A stretch of 64,000 bases of DNA from the NCBI RefSeq assembly GCF_056712565.1, contig NZ_CM160072.1; one strand, given 5' to 3'. Both the position numbers and the translations under genes were made by a program. Below the pieces are notes generated by a model. The model was not told the origin of the DNA. It did not search any database and worked only from the letters and a program-made list of their open reading frames with translations. Every line of letters starts with the position of its first letter. The first letter of the stretch is position 1. Positions 40,700 through 51,441 of the stretch are shown piece after piece.

Positions 40700-40905
40700 C
40701 CTTGCCGAATGTAGGCCGGATAAGGCGTTATACGCCGCATCCGGCAATCAATGCCTGATGCGACGCTGTCGCGTCTTATCAGGCCTACAGCCGTTGCCGA
40801 ATGTAGGCCGGATAAGGCGTTCACGCCGCATCCGGCAACCAGCGCCTGATGCGCCGCTGTCGCGTCTTATCAGGCCTACAAACCGTTACCGACTCGCATC
40901 CGGCA
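40700..40905. repeat. REP/BIME cluster: two tandem roughly 90-bp units of palindromic REP sequences between yjcH and acs
   Basis: Two near-identical units each containing GCCGGATAAGGCGTT...ACGCCGCATCCGGCA and TGCGACGCTGTCGCGTCTTATCAGGCCTAC palindromic cores. Confidence 0.85.
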
Positions 40906-40913
40906 ATTGTGGG

Positions 40914-42872
40914 TTACGATGGCATCGCGATGGCCTGCTTCTCTTCAAGCAGCTTCTCGACTACGCCAGGATCGGCAAGCGTCGAGGTATCGCCCAGGTT
41001 GCTGGTATCGCCCGCCGCAATTTTGCGCAGAATACGGCGCATAATTTTGCCGGAGCGGGTTTTAGGCAGGGAGTCGGTCCAGTGCAGCACGTCTGGCGTC
41101 GCCAGCGGGCCAATCTCTTTACGCACCCAGTTGCGGACTTCTGCGTACAGTTCTGGTGACGGTTCCTCCCCGTGATTAAGCGTGACGTAGGCGTAGATCG
41201 CCTGACCTTTAATATTGTGCGGAATACCGACCACAGCGGCTTCGGCAATTTTCGGATGCGCCACCAGCGCCGACTCAATCTCTGCCGTCCCCAGGCGGTG
41301 ACCGGAGACGTTCAGCACGTCGTCCACGCGCCCGGTGATCCAGTAATAGCCATCTTCATCGCGACGCGCGCCGTCGCCGCTGAAATACATATTTTTGAAG
41401 GTGGAGAAGTAGGTCTGCTCAAAACGTTCGTGATCGCCAAACAGAGTACGCGCCTGACCCGGCCAGGAGTCGGTGATCACCAGACTGCCTTCGGTGGCCC
41501 CCTCCAGCGGGTTACCTTCGTTATCGACCAGCGCTGGTTGCACGCCGAAGAACGGACGTGTTGCCGAACCGGCTTTCAGCTCGGTAGCGCCAGGCAGTGG
41601 CGTGATCATGAAACCGCCAGTTTCGGTCTGCCACCAGGTGTCGACCACCGGGCATTTCTCATTGCCGATCTTCTTCCAGTACCACTCCCACGCTTCCGGG
41701 TTAATTGGCTCGCCCACGGAACCGAGAATGCGCAGCGACGAACGGTCGGTGCCTTCGATCGCTTTATCGCCTTCCGCCATCAGCGCGCGAATCGCCGTGG
41801 GCGCGGTATAGAGAATATTGACCTGATGCTTGTCCACCACCTGCGCCATACGGGCAGGCGTCGGCCAGTTCGGTACGCCTTCAAACATCAGCGTGGTCGC
41901 GCCGCAGGCCAGCGGGCCATACAGCAAATAACTGTGTCCGGTAACCCAGCCCACATCGGCGGTGCACCAGTAGATGTCGCCCGGATGATAATCAAAGACA
42001 TATTTAAAGGTCAGCGCCGCGTACACCAGATAACCGCCGGTAGTGTGCAGCACGCCTTTTGGCTTACCGGTAGAACCGGAGGTATAGAGAATAAACAGCG
42101 GATCTTCGGCGTTCATCTCTTCCGCCTGGTGCTGATCGCTGGCTTGCTCAACCAGGTCGTGCCACCACAGGTCGCGCCCTTCCTGCCAGTCAATTTTTCC
42201 GCCAGTACGCTTCAGTACCACCACATGCTCTACGCTGGTGACGTTCGGGTTTTTCAGCGCGTCATCAACGTTTTTCTTCAGCGGAATACTACGCCCGGCA
42301 CGCACACCTTCGTCGGAAGTGATCACCAGTCGTGAACTGGAGTCGATAATGCGTCCGGCAACGGCTTCCGGCGAGAAGCCGCCGAAAATCACCGAATGTA
42401 CCGCGCCAATGCGGGCGCAGGCCAGCATCGCGACCGCGGCTTCCGGTACCATCGGCATATAAATCGCAACTACGTCACCTTTTTTAATGCCCAGTTCGAG
42501 CAGGGTATTGGCGAAGCGGCAGACGTCGCGGTGCAGCTCTTTATAGCTAATATGTTTGCTCTGGCTGGCGTCGTCGCCTTCCCAGATGATGGCGGTACGA
42601 TCGCCGTTTTCTTGCAGATGGCGGTCAAGGCAGTTTGCCGCCAGATTCAGCGTGCCGTCCTCGTACCATTTAATGGACACATTACCGGGGGCAAAGGAGG
42701 TGTTTTTCACCTTCTGGTACGGTGTGATCCAGTCGAGAATTTTTCCCTGTTCGCCCCAGAAGGTATCTGGTGCGTTAATAGATTGTTGATACATCGCCTC
42801 GTACTGCTGAGGGTTTATCAGGCAACGGTCTGCGATGTTGGCAGGAATGGTGTGTTTGTGAATTTGACTCAT
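40914..42872 (-). CDS. acs: acetyl-CoA synthetase
   Basis: 652 aa; [25 protein letters not shown]...; AMP-binding motif [11 protein letters not shown]. Confidence 0.97.
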
Positions 42873-43123
42873 GCTTTTGTTCTCCTTGTAAGATGTTAAT
42901 AATATGTGGCATAAGCGTTAAATGTAGGGGTATTGGCAGTTTTGTTTAGTATTTGGGCGACAGATCACGCAAAAGTAGAATTGTGCAAATAAACGGCAGG
43001 GTAATTTTTGAAGGTCAGCAACAAAAGTTGATTAATTCTTTGAGGAACATGCAGTTATGCATGCTGTTGAAAAAGAGGAAGATACTGACTAACTCTAAAG
43101 TGGTATTTTACATGCACTTACAA

Positions 43124-43137
43124 TTGATTAAAGACAA
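43124..43137 (+). promoter_or_regulatory. candidate FNR site in the nrfA promoter
   Basis: TTGATTAAAGACAA versus consensus TTGAT-N4-ATCAA (two mismatches in the second half-site); about 130 nt upstream of the nrfA ATG. Confidence 0.4.
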
Positions 43138-43257
43138 CATTCATAGTGTGGTTATTTGTTACACATAGGGACGAGCAATGTCATGACAGTGTAGGTGCGG
43201 TTACTGTCGTGAAAAACAATAAAAACCGCCATTGCAACAATGGCGCAATTCGGATGA

Positions 43258-44700
<1,443 letters not shown>

Positions 44701-44744
44701 CCCCGTTCCGCCTCGCAAGGGGCGGAAAACACAATGGAGTGAAT

Positions 44745-45311
44745 ATGAGCGTATTACGTTCGTTATTAACTGCCGGGGTGCTGGCGTCGGGCCTGTTGTG
44801 GAGCCTGAACGGAATTACCGCTACCCCTGCGGCGCAGGCATCTGGTGATCGCTACGAAGTTACCCAGCAGCGTAACCCGGATGCCGCCTGTCTGGACTGT
44901 CATAAGCCAGATACCGAAGGTATGCATGGCAAACATGCTTCCGTTATCAACCCGAATAACAAACTGCCGGTCACCTGCACCAACTGCCACGGTCAGCCAT
45001 CACCGCAACACCGCGAAGGGGTGAAAGATGTGATGCGCTTTAACGAGCCGATGTACAAGGTTGGAGAGCAGAACAGCGTCTGTATGTCCTGCCATCTGCC
45101 GGAACAGTTGCAAAAAGCGTTCTGGCCGCACGATGTCCACGTAACCAAAGTGGCGTGCGCCAGCTGCCATTCCCTGCATCCACAGCAAGATACGATGCAG
45201 ACGTTAAGTGACAAAGGACGGATTAAGATTTGCGTCGATTGCCACAGCGATCAACGCACCAATCCGAACTTTAACCCGGCGTCTGTTCCGTTGCTTAAGG
45301 AGCAGCCATGA
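44745..45311 (+). CDS. nrfB: pentahaem cytochrome c NrfB
   Basis: ORF-track ORF 44739-45311 (GTG) trimmed to ATG 44745 ([12 protein letters not shown]...); 188 aa; five CxxCH motifs. Confidence 0.95.
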
Positions 45312-45979
45312 CCTGGTCACGTCGCCAGTTTCTCACCGGCGTCGGTGTGCTGGCCGCCGTCAGCGGCACCGCAGGACGCGTGGTGGCGAAAACGTTGAAT
45401 ATCAATGGTGTGCGTTACGGCATGGTGCATGACGAGTCGTTATGCATCGGCTGTACCGCCTGTATGGATGCTTGTCGGGAAGTGAACAAGGTGCCGGAAG
45501 GCGTCTCGCGCCTGACGATTATTCGTAGCGAGCCGCAGGGCGAATTTCCTGATGTGAAATATCGCTTCTTCCGTAAGTCTTGCCAGCACTGCGATCATGC
45601 GCCGTGCGTTGATGTCTGCCCGACCGGTGCGTCTTTTCGCGACGCTGCCAGTGGGATTGTCGATGTTAATCCGGATCTCTGCGTCGGTTGTCAGTACTGC
45701 ATCGCCGCCTGTCCGTACCGCGTGCGCTTTATCCATCCGGTCACGAAGACGGCGGACAAATGCGATTTCTGCCGTAAGACCCATTTGCAGGCCGGTAAGC
45801 TGCCCGCGTGCGTTGAGGCTTGCCCGACGAAGGCGCTGACGTTTGGCAATCTGGACGATCCCAGCAGTGAGATTTCGCAACTGCTGCGCCAGAAGCCCAC
45901 TTACCGCTACAAGCTGGCGCTGGGAACCAAACCGAAGCTGTACCGCGTACCGTTTAAATACGGGGAGGTGAGCCAATGA
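45308..45979 (+). CDS. nrfC: 4Fe-4S ferredoxin-type subunit NrfC
   Basis: 223 aa; Tat signal RRQFLTG; multiple CxxCxxCxxxCP clusters; ATGA overlap with nrfB. Confidence 0.95.
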
Positions 45980-46932
45980 CGCAGACTTCCGCATTTCATT
46001 TTGAATCGCTGGTGTGGGACTGGCCGATTGCCATCTACCTGTTTTTGATTGGTATTTCTGCCGGTCTGGTGACGCTGGCCGTACTGTTACGTCGTGTCTA
46101 CCCGCAGGCGGGCGGTGCAGACAGTACGTTGCTGCGCACCACGCTGATTGTCGGGCCTGGCGCGGTGATCCTCGGTCTGTTGATCCTCGTCTTCCACCTG
46201 ACAAGACCGTGGACCTTCTGGAAGCTGATGTTCCACTACAGTTTTACCTCGGTGATGTCGATGGGGGTGATGCTGTTTCAGCTTTACATGGTGGTGCTGG
46301 TGCTGTGGCTGGCGAAAATCTTTGAACATGATTTGCTTGCCCTGCAACAACGCTGGTTGCCGAAGCTGGGGATCGTGCAAAAGGTCTTGAGCCTGCTGAC
46401 GCCCGTTCATCGCGGACTGGAAACATTGATGCTGGTGCTGGCGGTGTTGTTGGGGGCTTATACCGGCTTTCTGCTGTCGGCGCTGAAATCGTATCCGTTC
46501 CTCAATAACCCGATCCTGCCGGTGCTGTTCCTCTTCTCCGGCATCTCGTCCGGTGCGGCGGTGGCGCTGATCGCCATGGCGATACGCCAACGCAGTAACC
46601 CGCATTCCACGGAAGCGCACTTTGTACACCGTATGGAAATCCCCGTGGTATGGGGTGAAATCTTCCTGCTGGTGGCGTTTTTTGTCGGTCTGGCGCTGGG
46701 CGATGACGGTAAAGTGCGTGCGCTGGTGGCGGCATTGGGCGGCGGTTTCTGGACATGGTGGTTCTGGCTTGGTGTCGCCGGGCTGGGGCTGATTGTGCCA
46801 ATGTTGCTCAAACCGTGGGTCAATCGCAGTTCCGGCATTCCTGCCGTGCTGGCTGCGTGTGGGGCCAGCCTGGTCGGCGTGTTGATGCTGCGCTTTTTCA
46901 TTCTCTACGCCGGGCAGTTGACGGTGGCGTAA
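45976..46932 (+). CDS. nrfD: membrane quinol dehydrogenase subunit NrfD
   Basis: 318 aa polytopic protein; ATGA overlap with nrfC. Confidence 0.95.
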   Translation: MTQTSAFHFESLVWDWPIAIYLFLIGISAGLVTLAVLLRRVYPQAGGADSTLLRTTLIVGPGAVILGLLILVFHLTRPWTFWKLMFHYSFTSVMSMGVMLFQLYMVVLVLWLAKIFEHDLLALQQRWLPKLGIVQKVLSLLTPVHRGLETLMLVLAVLLGAYTGFLLSALKSYPFLNNPILPVLFLFSGISSGAAVALIAMAIRQRSNPHSTEAHFVHRMEIPVVWGEIFLLVAFFVGLALGDDGKVRALVAALGGGFWTWWFWLGVAGLGLIVPMLLKPWVNRSSGIPAVLAACGASLVGVLMLRFFILYAGQLTVA

Positions 46933-47011
46933 GCCAGAACAGAGGTGGTTTCTGGACGTATTCCTTCCTGAAGTCGGTTTTCTGGCGTTGTTGTTAAGTC
47001 TCGGGGTCAAC

Positions 47012-48670
47012 GTGTTGACCCCGTTGACGGCCTTCGCGGGAGTGCGGTTGCGCTGGCCTGCCATGATGCGACTCACTTGCATCGGCATTCTGGCGCAGTT
47101 CGCGCTCCTGCTGCTCGCCTTTGGCGTACTGACGTATTGTTTTCTCATCAGCGATTTCTCGGTCATTTATGTCGCCCAACATAGCTATAGCCTGCTGTCG
47201 TGGGAACTCAAACTGGCGGCGGTGTGGGGCGGTCATGAAGGTTCGCTGCTGCTTTGGGTGCTGCTGCTTTCCGCCTGGAGCGTGCTGTTTGCCTGGCATT
47301 ATCGACAGCAAACCGATCCGCTATTTCCGCTCACGTTAACGGTTTTATCGCTGATACTTGCCGCACTGCTGCTGTTTGTTGTCGGATGGTCCGATCCTTT
47401 TGTGAGGATATTTCCGCCCGCAATAGAAGGGCGCGATCTCAATCCGATGCTGCAACATCCCGGTCTTATCTTTCATCCACCGCTGCTTTATCTCGGCTAC
47501 GGCGGTTTGATGGTGGCGGCGAGCGTGGCGCTGGCGAGTTTACTGCGCGGCGAGTTTGGTGGTACCTGCGCCCGAATTTGCTGGCGTTGGGCACTACCTG
47601 GCTGGAGCGCATTAACAGCGGGGATCATCCTCGGTTCCTGGTGGGCCTATTGCGAACTGGGCTGGGGCGGCTGGTGGTTCTGGGATCCGGTGGAAAACGC
47701 GTCGTTATTACCCTGGCTTTCTGCCACAGCGCTGCTGCACAGTTTATCCCTGACACGCCAGCGGGGGATTTTCCGCCACTGGTCGCTGTTGCTGGCGATA
47801 GTAACTCTGATGCTGTCGCTGCTGGGCACCTTAATTGTCCGTTCTGGCATTCTGGTTTCGGTTCATGCGTTCGCGCTGGATAACGTCCGCGCCGTGCCGT
47901 TGTTCAGCCTGTTTGCACTGATTAGCCTTGCGTCTCTGGCTCTGTATGGCTGGCGAGCGCGGGACGGTGGCCCGGCGGTGCGTTTTTCGGGGTTATCGCG
48001 GGAAATGTTAATCCTCGCTACGCTGTTGCTGTTTTGCGCAGTGCTACTGATCGTGCTGGTGGGAACGCTTTATCCGATGATTTACGGCCTGCTGGGCTGG
48101 GGACGCCTCTCCGTTGGCGCGCCGTATTTTAACCGCGCGACGTTACCGTTTGCTCTGTTGATGCTGGTGGTGATTGTGCTGGCGACGTTTGTCTCTGGCA
48201 AACGTGCTCAGCTTCCGGCGCTGCTGGCGCATGCGGGCGTGCTGTTATTTGCCGCGGGGATCGTGGTTTCCAGCGTCAGCCGTCAGGAGATCAGCCTGAA
48301 TTTACAGCCGGGTCAGCAGGTGACGCTGGCAGGATACACCTTCCGTTTTGAGCGCCTCGATCTGCAAGCCAAAGGCAATTACACCAGTGAAAAAGCGATA
48401 GTGGCACTGTTTGACCATCAGCAACGCATTGGTGAATTAACGCCGGAGCGGCGTTTTTACGAAGCACGTCGTCAGCAAATGATGGAACCGTCAATTCGCT
48501 GGAATGGCATCCATGACTGGTATGCGGTCATGGGCGAGAAAACCGGAGCGGATCGTTACGCTTTTCGTTTGTATGTACAAAGCGGTGTGCGCTGGATCTG
48601 GGGGGGAGGATTGTTGATGATTGCGGGCGCATTGTTAAGCGGATGGCGGGGAAGGAAGCGCGATGAATAA
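47012..48670 (+). CDS. nrfE: cytochrome c-type biogenesis protein NrfE (haem lyase, CcmF-like)
   Basis: ORF-track ORF 46988-48670 (TTG) trimmed to GTG 47012 to give the K-12 length of 552 aa (GGGG SD 6 nt upstream); start is uncertain. Confidence 0.85.
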   Translation: MLTPLTAFAGVRLRWPAMMRLTCIGILAQFALLLLAFGVLTYCFLISDFSVIYVAQHSYSLLSWELKLAAVWGGHEGSLLLWVLLLSAWSVLFAWHYRQQTDPLFPLTLTVLSLILAALLLFVVGWSDPFVRIFPPAIEGRDLNPMLQHPGLIFHPPLLYLGYGGLMVAASVALASLLRGEFGGTCARICWRWALPGWSALTAGIILGSWWAYCELGWGGWWFWDPVENASLLPWLSATALLHSLSLTRQRGIFRHWSLLLAIVTLMLSLLGTLIVRSGILVSVHAFALDNVRAVPLFSLFALISLASLALYGWRARDGGPAVRFSGLSREMLILATLLLFCAVLLIVLVGTLYPMIYGLLGWGRLSVGAPYFNRATLPFALLMLVVIVLATFVSGKRAQLPALLAHAGVLLFAAGIVVSSVSRQEISLNLQPGQQVTLAGYTFRFERLDLQAKGNYTSEKAIVALFDHQQRIGELTPERRFYEARRQQMMEPSIRWNGIHDWYAVMGEKTGADRYAFRLYVQSGVRWIWGGGLLMIAGALLSGWRGRKRDE

Positions 48671-51369: not shown

Positions 51370-51441
51370 TTTTTGTAGGTCGGATAAGGCGTTTACGCCG
51401 CATCCGACATCAATGCCTGATGCGACGTTTGCTGCGCCTAC
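51370..51441. repeat. REP element(s) between gltP and yjcO
   Basis: GTAGGTCGGATAAGGCGTTTACGCCGCATCCGACATCAATGCCTGATGCGACG, same REP family as at 40700-40905. Confidence 0.75.

Follow-up and report, generated by a model that had tools for sequence, protein, structure and literature searches.

Differentially decaying operons of E. coli carry protective RNA hairpins that have no U tracts and involve no Rho termination (Dar and Sorek 2018, PMC5927463). These hairpins edge the 3' end of the more stable upstream segment and are conserved in Salmonella and Enterobacter. Once an endonuclease has cut the transcript, they keep PNPase and RNase II from degrading that segment (PMC5927463). REPs are the classical mRNA stabilisers that act as exonuclease barriers, as at malE-malF (PMC5927463 and PMC12306157).

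The spacer between nrfA and nrfB in E. coli holds a hairpin that resembles both. Like the malE-malF REP stabiliser (Newbury et al. 1987) and the hairpins of PMC5927463, it has no U tract, lies past the first and most needed cistron and is conserved. Unlike the element at malE-malF, it is not a REP, is present in a single copy and is much smaller than a BIME. It also sits in the spacer, whereas most of the Dar and Sorek protective hairpins lie inside the next open reading frame (PMC5927463). We liken the nrf hairpin to this class from its sequence and predicted fold.

Other described elements resemble the nrf hairpin in part. Intrinsic terminators and attenuators also combine a GC-rich hairpin, a short loop and a position at a gene boundary. 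Efficient release at intrinsic terminators requires a U-rich tail. In no lineage, however, does the nrf hairpin carry a U-rich tail, and further genes of the operon lie directly behind it. Long-range mRNA pairing can couple translation, as for rpmI-rplT in the infC operon and for the coat and replicase genes of MS2. At nrf, too, the upstream cistron is predicted to close the downstream start region through pairing with its own 3' end, and translation of nrfA would open it. Here, however, the pairing is a prediction with weak covariation, and the spacer hairpin is not the sequestering helix. REPs within about 15 nt of a stop codon are reported to stall ribosomes (Liang, Rudd and Deutscher 2015, as summarised in PMC12306157). 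The nrf hairpin shares with these stop-proximal REPs a stable structure less than 15 nt from the stop. It is not a REP, however, and the prediction of less NrfA runs opposite to the expected need.

The nrf operon serves respiratory nitrite ammonification in enteric bacteria. Its regulation has been described at the promoter only, through FNR, NarL/NarP, NsrR, IHF and Fis, and a 2025 review of nrf regulation makes no mention of mRNA-level control. Our literature search returned no paper on a stem-loop, terminator, sRNA or mRNA processing at nrfA-nrfB; Darwin 1993 and Hussain 1994 lay outside this search and may have noted the dyad symmetry. On comparative evidence, the hairpin is a real sense-strand RNA structure that compensatory evolution has preserved, and it does not qualify as a canonical terminator. 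Most probably it is an operon-internal mRNA stabiliser or organiser.

The locus

The window is the whole stretch of DNA that we analysed, 64,000 nt long. The region is 100% identical to E. coli ATCC 11775 and occurs as a single copy in 5,419 of 5,426 complete E. coli genomes. The genes nrfC to nrfG lie downstream of nrfB, all on the + strand. The nrfA-nrfB spacer is 44 nt long (44701-44744), has the identical sequence in K-12 and carries no annotation in RefSeq records. The features of the junction are:

43264-44700, + strand: nrfA coding sequence, cytochrome c552 nitrite reductase
44698-44700, + strand: nrfA stop codon TAA; the hairpin begins 5 nt beyond it
44701-44704, + strand: CCCC run between the nrfA stop and the hairpin, kept in nearly all Enterobacterales; its predicted partner is GGGG at 44775-44778 in nrfB
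44706-44727, + strand: intercistronic RNA hairpin, with 5' arm UUCCGCCUC (44706-44714), GCAA tetraloop (44715-44718) and 3' arm GGGGCGGAA (44719-44727)
44728-44735, + strand: A-rich single-stranded linker 3' of the stem, beginning AAACACAA, without a U tract
44736-44747, + strand: nrfB ribosome-binding site, comprising the Shine-Dalgarno motif GGAG (44736-44739) and the ATG (44745-44747), which comes 17 nt after the end of the stem
44742-44767, + strand: predicted second hairpin, in which the nrfB AUG pairs with codons 4-8; near-invariant sequence in Enterobacterales
44683-44793, + strand: three-way RNA domain predicted by RNAalifold, enclosing the spacer hairpin and the nrfB start
44745-45311, + strand: nrfB coding sequence, pentahaem cytochrome

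A stable hairpin on the sense strand

The initial annotation had placed a stem-loop between the nrfA stop and the nrfB start, and our analysis bears this out. A repeat finder recovers TTCCGCC (44706-44712) and GGCGGAA (44721-44727), which are 100% complementary and lie 8 nt apart, as the sole inverted repeat in 44600-44850. The RNA stem is longer than the DNA repeat: U44713-G44720 and C44714-G44719 extend it to 9 bp. This stem contains six G-C pairs and one U-G wobble and is closed by a GCAA (GNRA) tetraloop.

The minimum free energy (MFE) of the hairpin is -16.3 kcal/mol, with z = -3.5 against dinucleotide shuffles and only one of 200 shuffles as good. The reverse strand folds weakly (-11.4 kcal/mol, z = -0.4). 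The hairpin is retained in the MFE structures of 91-nt and 141-nt contexts, and the linker 3' of the stem is single-stranded in every fold that we computed.

How rare is such a fold? The spacer folds better than 99.2% of its own dinucleotide shuffles. In a sliding scan of the 64-kb window, 32-nt segments reach an MFE of -16 kcal/mol or lower at 37 loci of the + strand and at 33 of the - strand. Given 37 comparable + strand loci, a given 44-nt spacer holds one with a chance of about 1%. Because of these 37 loci we dropped thermodynamic rarity as an argument. Their abundance speaks for a palindrome without selected function, or for a site at which a protein binds the DNA itself, a reading that we consider quite unlikely overall. 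The case for more than chance is one of pairing conserved across sequence-divergent lineages, not of stability.

An E-value search of 42800-46000 against Rfam 15 gives no match at 44700-44770 and three chance-level hits elsewhere. A MicA-like match at 43222-43295 reaches 20.9 bits, where the gathering score is 41, and was rejected as chance.

The window holds further palindromes. Canonical REP-like palindromes of the form GCCGGATAAGGCGT...GCATCCGGC occur at 40715-40746, 40807-40838 and 51379-51410; they adjoin the 3' end of acs or lie between nrfG and gltP. The 5' UTR of nrfA contains a hairpin at 43227-43245 (CGCCATTG-CAA-CAATGGCG) that ends 18 nt before the AUG, similar to the 17-18 nt at nrfB. 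It is kept across Enterobacteriaceae, where it shows wobble changes, and Serratia and Pectobacterium have other stems in the same place. Read on the - strand, this hairpin has GTTTTTATTG behind it and resembles an intrinsic terminator that points towards the acs promoter region.

Conservation across lineages

Our comparative set consists of 50 loci from an NrfB scan of species-representative genomes. We enlarged it by eight readable loci (L054-L057, L059-L062), in seven of which nrfA lies directly upstream of nrfB. Where a strong hairpin comes directly behind the nrfA stop, it takes the following forms:

Escherichia, Citrobacter, Salmonella, Enterobacter, Trabulsiella, Intestinirhabdus and Buttiauxella: hairpin alignable with the E. 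coli form
Providencia: CACCCCAG/CUGGGGUG
Serratia, two of three species: CGCCCCG/CGGGGCG
Pectobacterium: hairpin of its own sequence
Edwardsiella: hairpin of its own sequence
Yersinia sp.: two hairpins in an 88-nt spacer
Aeromonas, 15 of 15 species: UGCGGGCCCG/CGGGCCCGCA, 10-14 bp
Two AT-rich lineages (39-42% GC): AU-richer stems

Among 22 Enterobacterales spacers, 85% of the cells of the 9-bp helix are paired. Double changes occur in four of the nine pairs (C-G to U-A, G-C to A-U and U-G to U-A). The covariation score of this helix is unmatched by all 500 shuffles and by every slid control. In Aeromonas the basal pair is U-A in ten species, G-C in four and A-U in one. On this comparison, it is the pairing of the hairpin rather than its sequence that selection maintains.

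Many species carry U-G wobbles whose U belongs to the 5' arm and whose G belongs to the 3' arm. The opposite strand, or DNA, would have A-C mismatches at these places. Hence the selected object is the sense RNA. Conservation of pairing rather than sequence, the wobble pairs and the strand asymmetry of folding together led us to reject a DNA-level palindrome; a DNA site would conserve sequence, not pairing. The absence of any selected function is also difficult to reconcile with unrelated hairpins that occupy the same position in at least eight lineages and carry compensatory changes.

The position of the hairpin is conserved as well. Between the nrfA stop and the start of the stem lie 3-9 nt, mostly 5-7 nt, and lineages with unrelated stems are no exception. 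In most independent lineages, those with unrelated stems among them, about 17-20 nt separate the end of the stem from the nrfB AUG, and the distance from the stem end to the Shine-Dalgarno motif is about 8 nt across lineages.

Not every lineage has the hairpin. It is missing from the spacers of Shimwellia (31 nt), Serratia microhaemolytica (41 nt) and a 2.2-Mb genome of 41% GC (18 nt), and these three lineages fit a palindrome without function. In four Citrobacter species of the amalonaticus/koseri group (L015, L016, L020, L025) the spacer is 100-113 nt long and contains a BIME in place of the hairpin; among the compared loci, these four alone have true REP/BIME elements at this site. This BIME consists of two inverted REPs (GCCGGATG...CATCAGGC) and replaces the simple hairpin; it is not added to it. 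The sequence directly past the stop and the nrfB ribosome-binding site are kept in the BIME-bearing Citrobacter. The hairpin is still present in C. amalonaticus S646, a close relative of the BIME carriers.

Two further identities were considered and rejected. The E. coli hairpin is not itself a REP, being single copy and without the REP consensus. CsrA-type GGA sites, sought by eye, are not kept: Citrobacter Awk4/R56, Providencia and Serratia lack the GGA that E. coli has at the base of the 3' arm.

Variation within E. coli

The hairpin is a single-copy element in E. coli, found at a median of one place per genome in 5,415 genomes. The 45-nt hairpin region is identical in 5,104 of 5,416 E. coli records (94%). 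Variants at the pair formed by G44710 and C44723 are as follows. G44710A alone occurs in 43 of the 5,416 records; the resulting A-C mismatch is uncompensated and leaves a weaker stem of -10.9 kcal/mol. C44723U alone occurs in one record and leaves a G-U wobble. The compensated double change G44710A + C44723U is found in none of the 5,416 E. coli records and is fixed in Escherichia sp. MOD1-EC7003.

A different change breaks the stem of E. coli H2 (NZ_CP028733.1), where a C-to-A substitution turns CCGCC into CCGAC. The nrfA gene of this strain is annotated as a frameshifted pseudogene. The coincidence of a broken stem and a decayed nrfA is an anecdotal sign of relaxed selection.

The mismatch that segregates in 43 genomes again favours a palindrome without selected function. 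Selection on the stem looks real but moderate.

No terminator tail

In the initial annotation the stem-loop was also a candidate partial terminator or stabiliser that could raise NrfA relative to the downstream subunits. A factor-independent terminator or attenuator would cut transcription of nrfB-G relative to nrfA. In favour of this reading are the GC-rich 9-bp hairpin at a gene boundary and a link to transcription attenuation that has been drawn for BIMEs (Espeli 2001, cited in PMC12306157), the elements that take the place of the hairpin in some Citrobacter. The tail, however, is missing. The eight nucleotides past the stem, taken with its 8-bp core, read AAACACAA and contain no U. Among 27 hairpin-bearing lineages the next eight nucleotides hold 0-3 U and are usually A-rich; even the maximum of three is no U tract. 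A consensus terminator scan does not call the site. The terminator reading is thus not supported, and we consider partial termination very unlikely. A promoter scan finds no internal promoter-like site upstream of nrfB.

A different picture is seen in two Aeromonas loci (L035, L050), where a long GC hairpin with a T-rich tail follows just past nrfD (e.g., AAGCGCCAGCCGCC...GGCGGCTGGCGCTT GTTTGTTGTT). By its sequence, this post-nrfD hairpin looks like a true terminator that ends the operon, in contrast to the U-less post-nrfA hairpin of the same genomes.

A proposed barrier to exonucleases

Our leading explanation, by analogy with the described protective hairpins, is that the hairpin is a barrier to 3'-to-5' exonucleases and stabilises the nrfA segment; we hold it tentatively, as plausible but somewhat short of probable. 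The nrfABCDEFG mRNA would be cut downstream or ended prematurely, and decay by PNPase or RNase II would halt at the base of the stem. The translatable nrfA segment would then outlive the nrfB-G part, which would favour the abundant catalytic subunit.

We favour stabilisation because the hairpin is stable without a U tract, because its structure is conserved and because some Citrobacter have a REP/BIME in its place. This substitution is the single most suggestive piece of evidence for functional equivalence. The described protective hairpins are stable stem-loops that mark the 3' boundary of the upstream cistron, lack a U tract and have a structure conserved in relatives, and the nrf hairpin has each of these properties. 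Structure, strand specificity, conservation, covariation and the missing terminator tail are results of the present analysis, whereas we infer the barrier function and any effect on the NrfA:NrfB ratio.

About 17-20 nt upstream of an AUG is about the space that a 30S subunit needs clear. With about 5-7 nt between stop and stem and about 17-20 nt between stem and nrfB AUG, the arrangement looks like the tightest packing that would spare both ribosomes.

A second conserved hairpin lies at the nrfD-nrfE junction (47004-47023). Together, the two hairpins fit a segmented-decay layout A / BCD / EFG, that is, catalytic subunit, electron-transfer subunits and haem lyase. The palindrome at 47004-47023 is near-perfect (GGGGTCAACGTGTTGACCCC), and the surrounding 32-nt segment folds with -19.3 kcal/mol. 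It is kept in Escherichia, Citrobacter, Salmonella and Enterobacter. The Buttiauxella variant GGGGTCAG/CTGGCCCC still pairs, with one compensated pair and one wobble. A K-12-type GTG start of nrfE (47012) would fall in the loop of this palindrome; the RefSeq start at 46952 reads CTG.

Several observations count against stabilisation. NrfA and NrfB are thought to act as 1:1 or 2:2 complexes (PMC12285233). Hence a large excess of NrfA over NrfB is not obviously needed. The three hairpin-less lineages and the 43 E. coli genomes with an uncompensated A-C mismatch also count against it.

Published transcript maps bear on the locus as follows. The supplements of Dar and Sorek (2018), from aerobic cultures, contain no nrf genes. 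The aerobic 3'-end tables of Adams et al. (2021) contain nothing in the nrfA-nrfB spacer; their only nrf entry is a significant bicyclomycin-sensitive (Rho-dependent) site in the 5' part of nrfA (MG1655 4287833, + strand, aerobic), which is unrelated to the hairpin. The anaerobic study of Murashko (2023) contains no nrf entry.

The same placement can be read from the other side. The hairpin could protect the downstream transcript or the junction itself, either as a 5'-terminal stem-loop that would stabilise nrfB-G once RNase E had cut near the nrfA stop, or by leaving no naked spacer RNA for RNase E. We regard this as unlikely. With 5 nt from the stop to the stem and a short linker to the Shine-Dalgarno motif, ribosomes and stem together cover the whole spacer. 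Structured 5' ends made by RNase E stabilise downstream operon segments in E. coli (PMC5927463), and the similar hairpin in the 5' UTR of nrfA ends 18 nt before the nrfA AUG. The A-rich linker past the stem, however, is single-stranded in every fold. A candidate RNase E motif RN/WUU in the nrfB loop (GU/AUU, found by eye) was rejected, since it is lost where species have ACU or CUG.

The short distance to the stop codon could also make the stem a roadblock. By analogy with stop-proximal REPs, a terminating ribosome would stall on mRNA trimmed at its 3' end, and cleavage and tmRNA rescue would lower NrfA output. In favour of this, the stem begins 5 nt past the stop in E. coli and 3-9 nt past it in all lineages. 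NrfA is the most abundant product of the nrf operon, however, and a built-in brake on it is hardly to be expected. Judged from published ribosome geometry, moreover, a ribosome that holds the stop codon in its A site would have the stem base at position +12 or so relative to the P site, where mRNA enters the channel, and little or no unwinding would be needed. We consider a roadblock highly improbable.

A possible role in nrfB translation and a predicted junction domain

The main rival to exonuclease protection is a role in the translation of nrfB. The spacing to the nrfB AUG and the conservation of synonymous sites in the flanks exceed what a pure exonuclease barrier needs, which hints at a role linked to translation. 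The hairpin could belong to a translation-initiation module of nrfB, a possibility that we take seriously but find doubtful. In one version, the hairpin insulates the nrfB ribosome-binding site from upstream sequence. In another, it is an arm of a three-way domain of about 110 nt; a ribosome that finishes nrfA would open this domain, and only then would nrfB be translated efficiently, by translational coupling.

The conserved spacing is the first point in favour of such a module: a gap of 17-20 nt between stem and nrfB AUG recurs in most independent lineages, unrelated stem sequences notwithstanding. However, this spacing may simply be the minimum that leaves the 30S site free, and a much larger BIME is tolerated in place of the hairpin.

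The second point is the conservation of the flanking gene ends. We calculated synonymous-codon identity at conserved residues in 26 Enterobacterales loci, where the median is 0.62 and the 99th percentile 0.88. Identity peaks in the last 12 codons of nrfA (0.87) and the first 12 codons of nrfB (0.91). The stretches of high identity are the last 12 nrfA codons (44662-44697) and nrfB codons 1-15 (44745-44790). Nucleotide identity over the first 45 nt or so of nrfB is nearly complete from E. coli to Providencia, Serratia and Pectobacterium, although the NrfB protein is only 71-80% identical. This pattern suggests that the flanks of the junction are under constraint at the RNA level.

RNAalifold predicts enclosing helices and a hairpin that sequesters the AUG. 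In the predicted domain, the 3' end of nrfA (44683-87, 44693-96, 44700-04) pairs with 44775-79, 44782-85 and 44789-93, that is, with nrfB codons 11-17. These long-range helices have 95.7% of their cells paired, and their covariation score is reached by four of 500 shuffles. The CCCC past the stop is near-invariant, as is its predicted GGGG partner in nrfB; the Yersinia sp. locus has lost the two of them. The AUG hairpin (44742-44767, AAUAUGAGCGU/ACGUUCG-UAUU) is near-invariant in sequence and has 94% of its cells paired. What variation it shows sits in the loop or preserves pairs.

Covariation, however, lends the flanking helices little weight. They are near-invariant, and double changes occur in two pairs only. 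The covariation of the AUG hairpin, at 76-94 of 500 on all five measures, is not significant. Covariation is weak or absent in these helices because their sequences barely vary. The domain structure was also derived from the same sequences that were used to test it.

In its strongest form, this model makes the junction a translational coupling switch that would set the NrfA:NrfB stoichiometry, with the hairpin as an arm of the 44683-44793 domain. We consider such a switch rather unlikely. If true, this would add a previously undescribed post-transcriptional layer to nrf regulation, of which the promoter is so far the only described level.

Implications for nrf biology

General understanding would not change, since elements of this kind are already known in other operons. 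If confirmed, the nrfA-nrfB hairpin would be a clean and compact natural example of an operon-internal stabiliser or coupling element. The swap of the hairpin for a REP/BIME in one Citrobacter clade is a natural experiment. For the nrf operon itself, a conserved hairpin between conserved flanking gene ends suggests that subunit ratios are also tuned post-transcriptionally.
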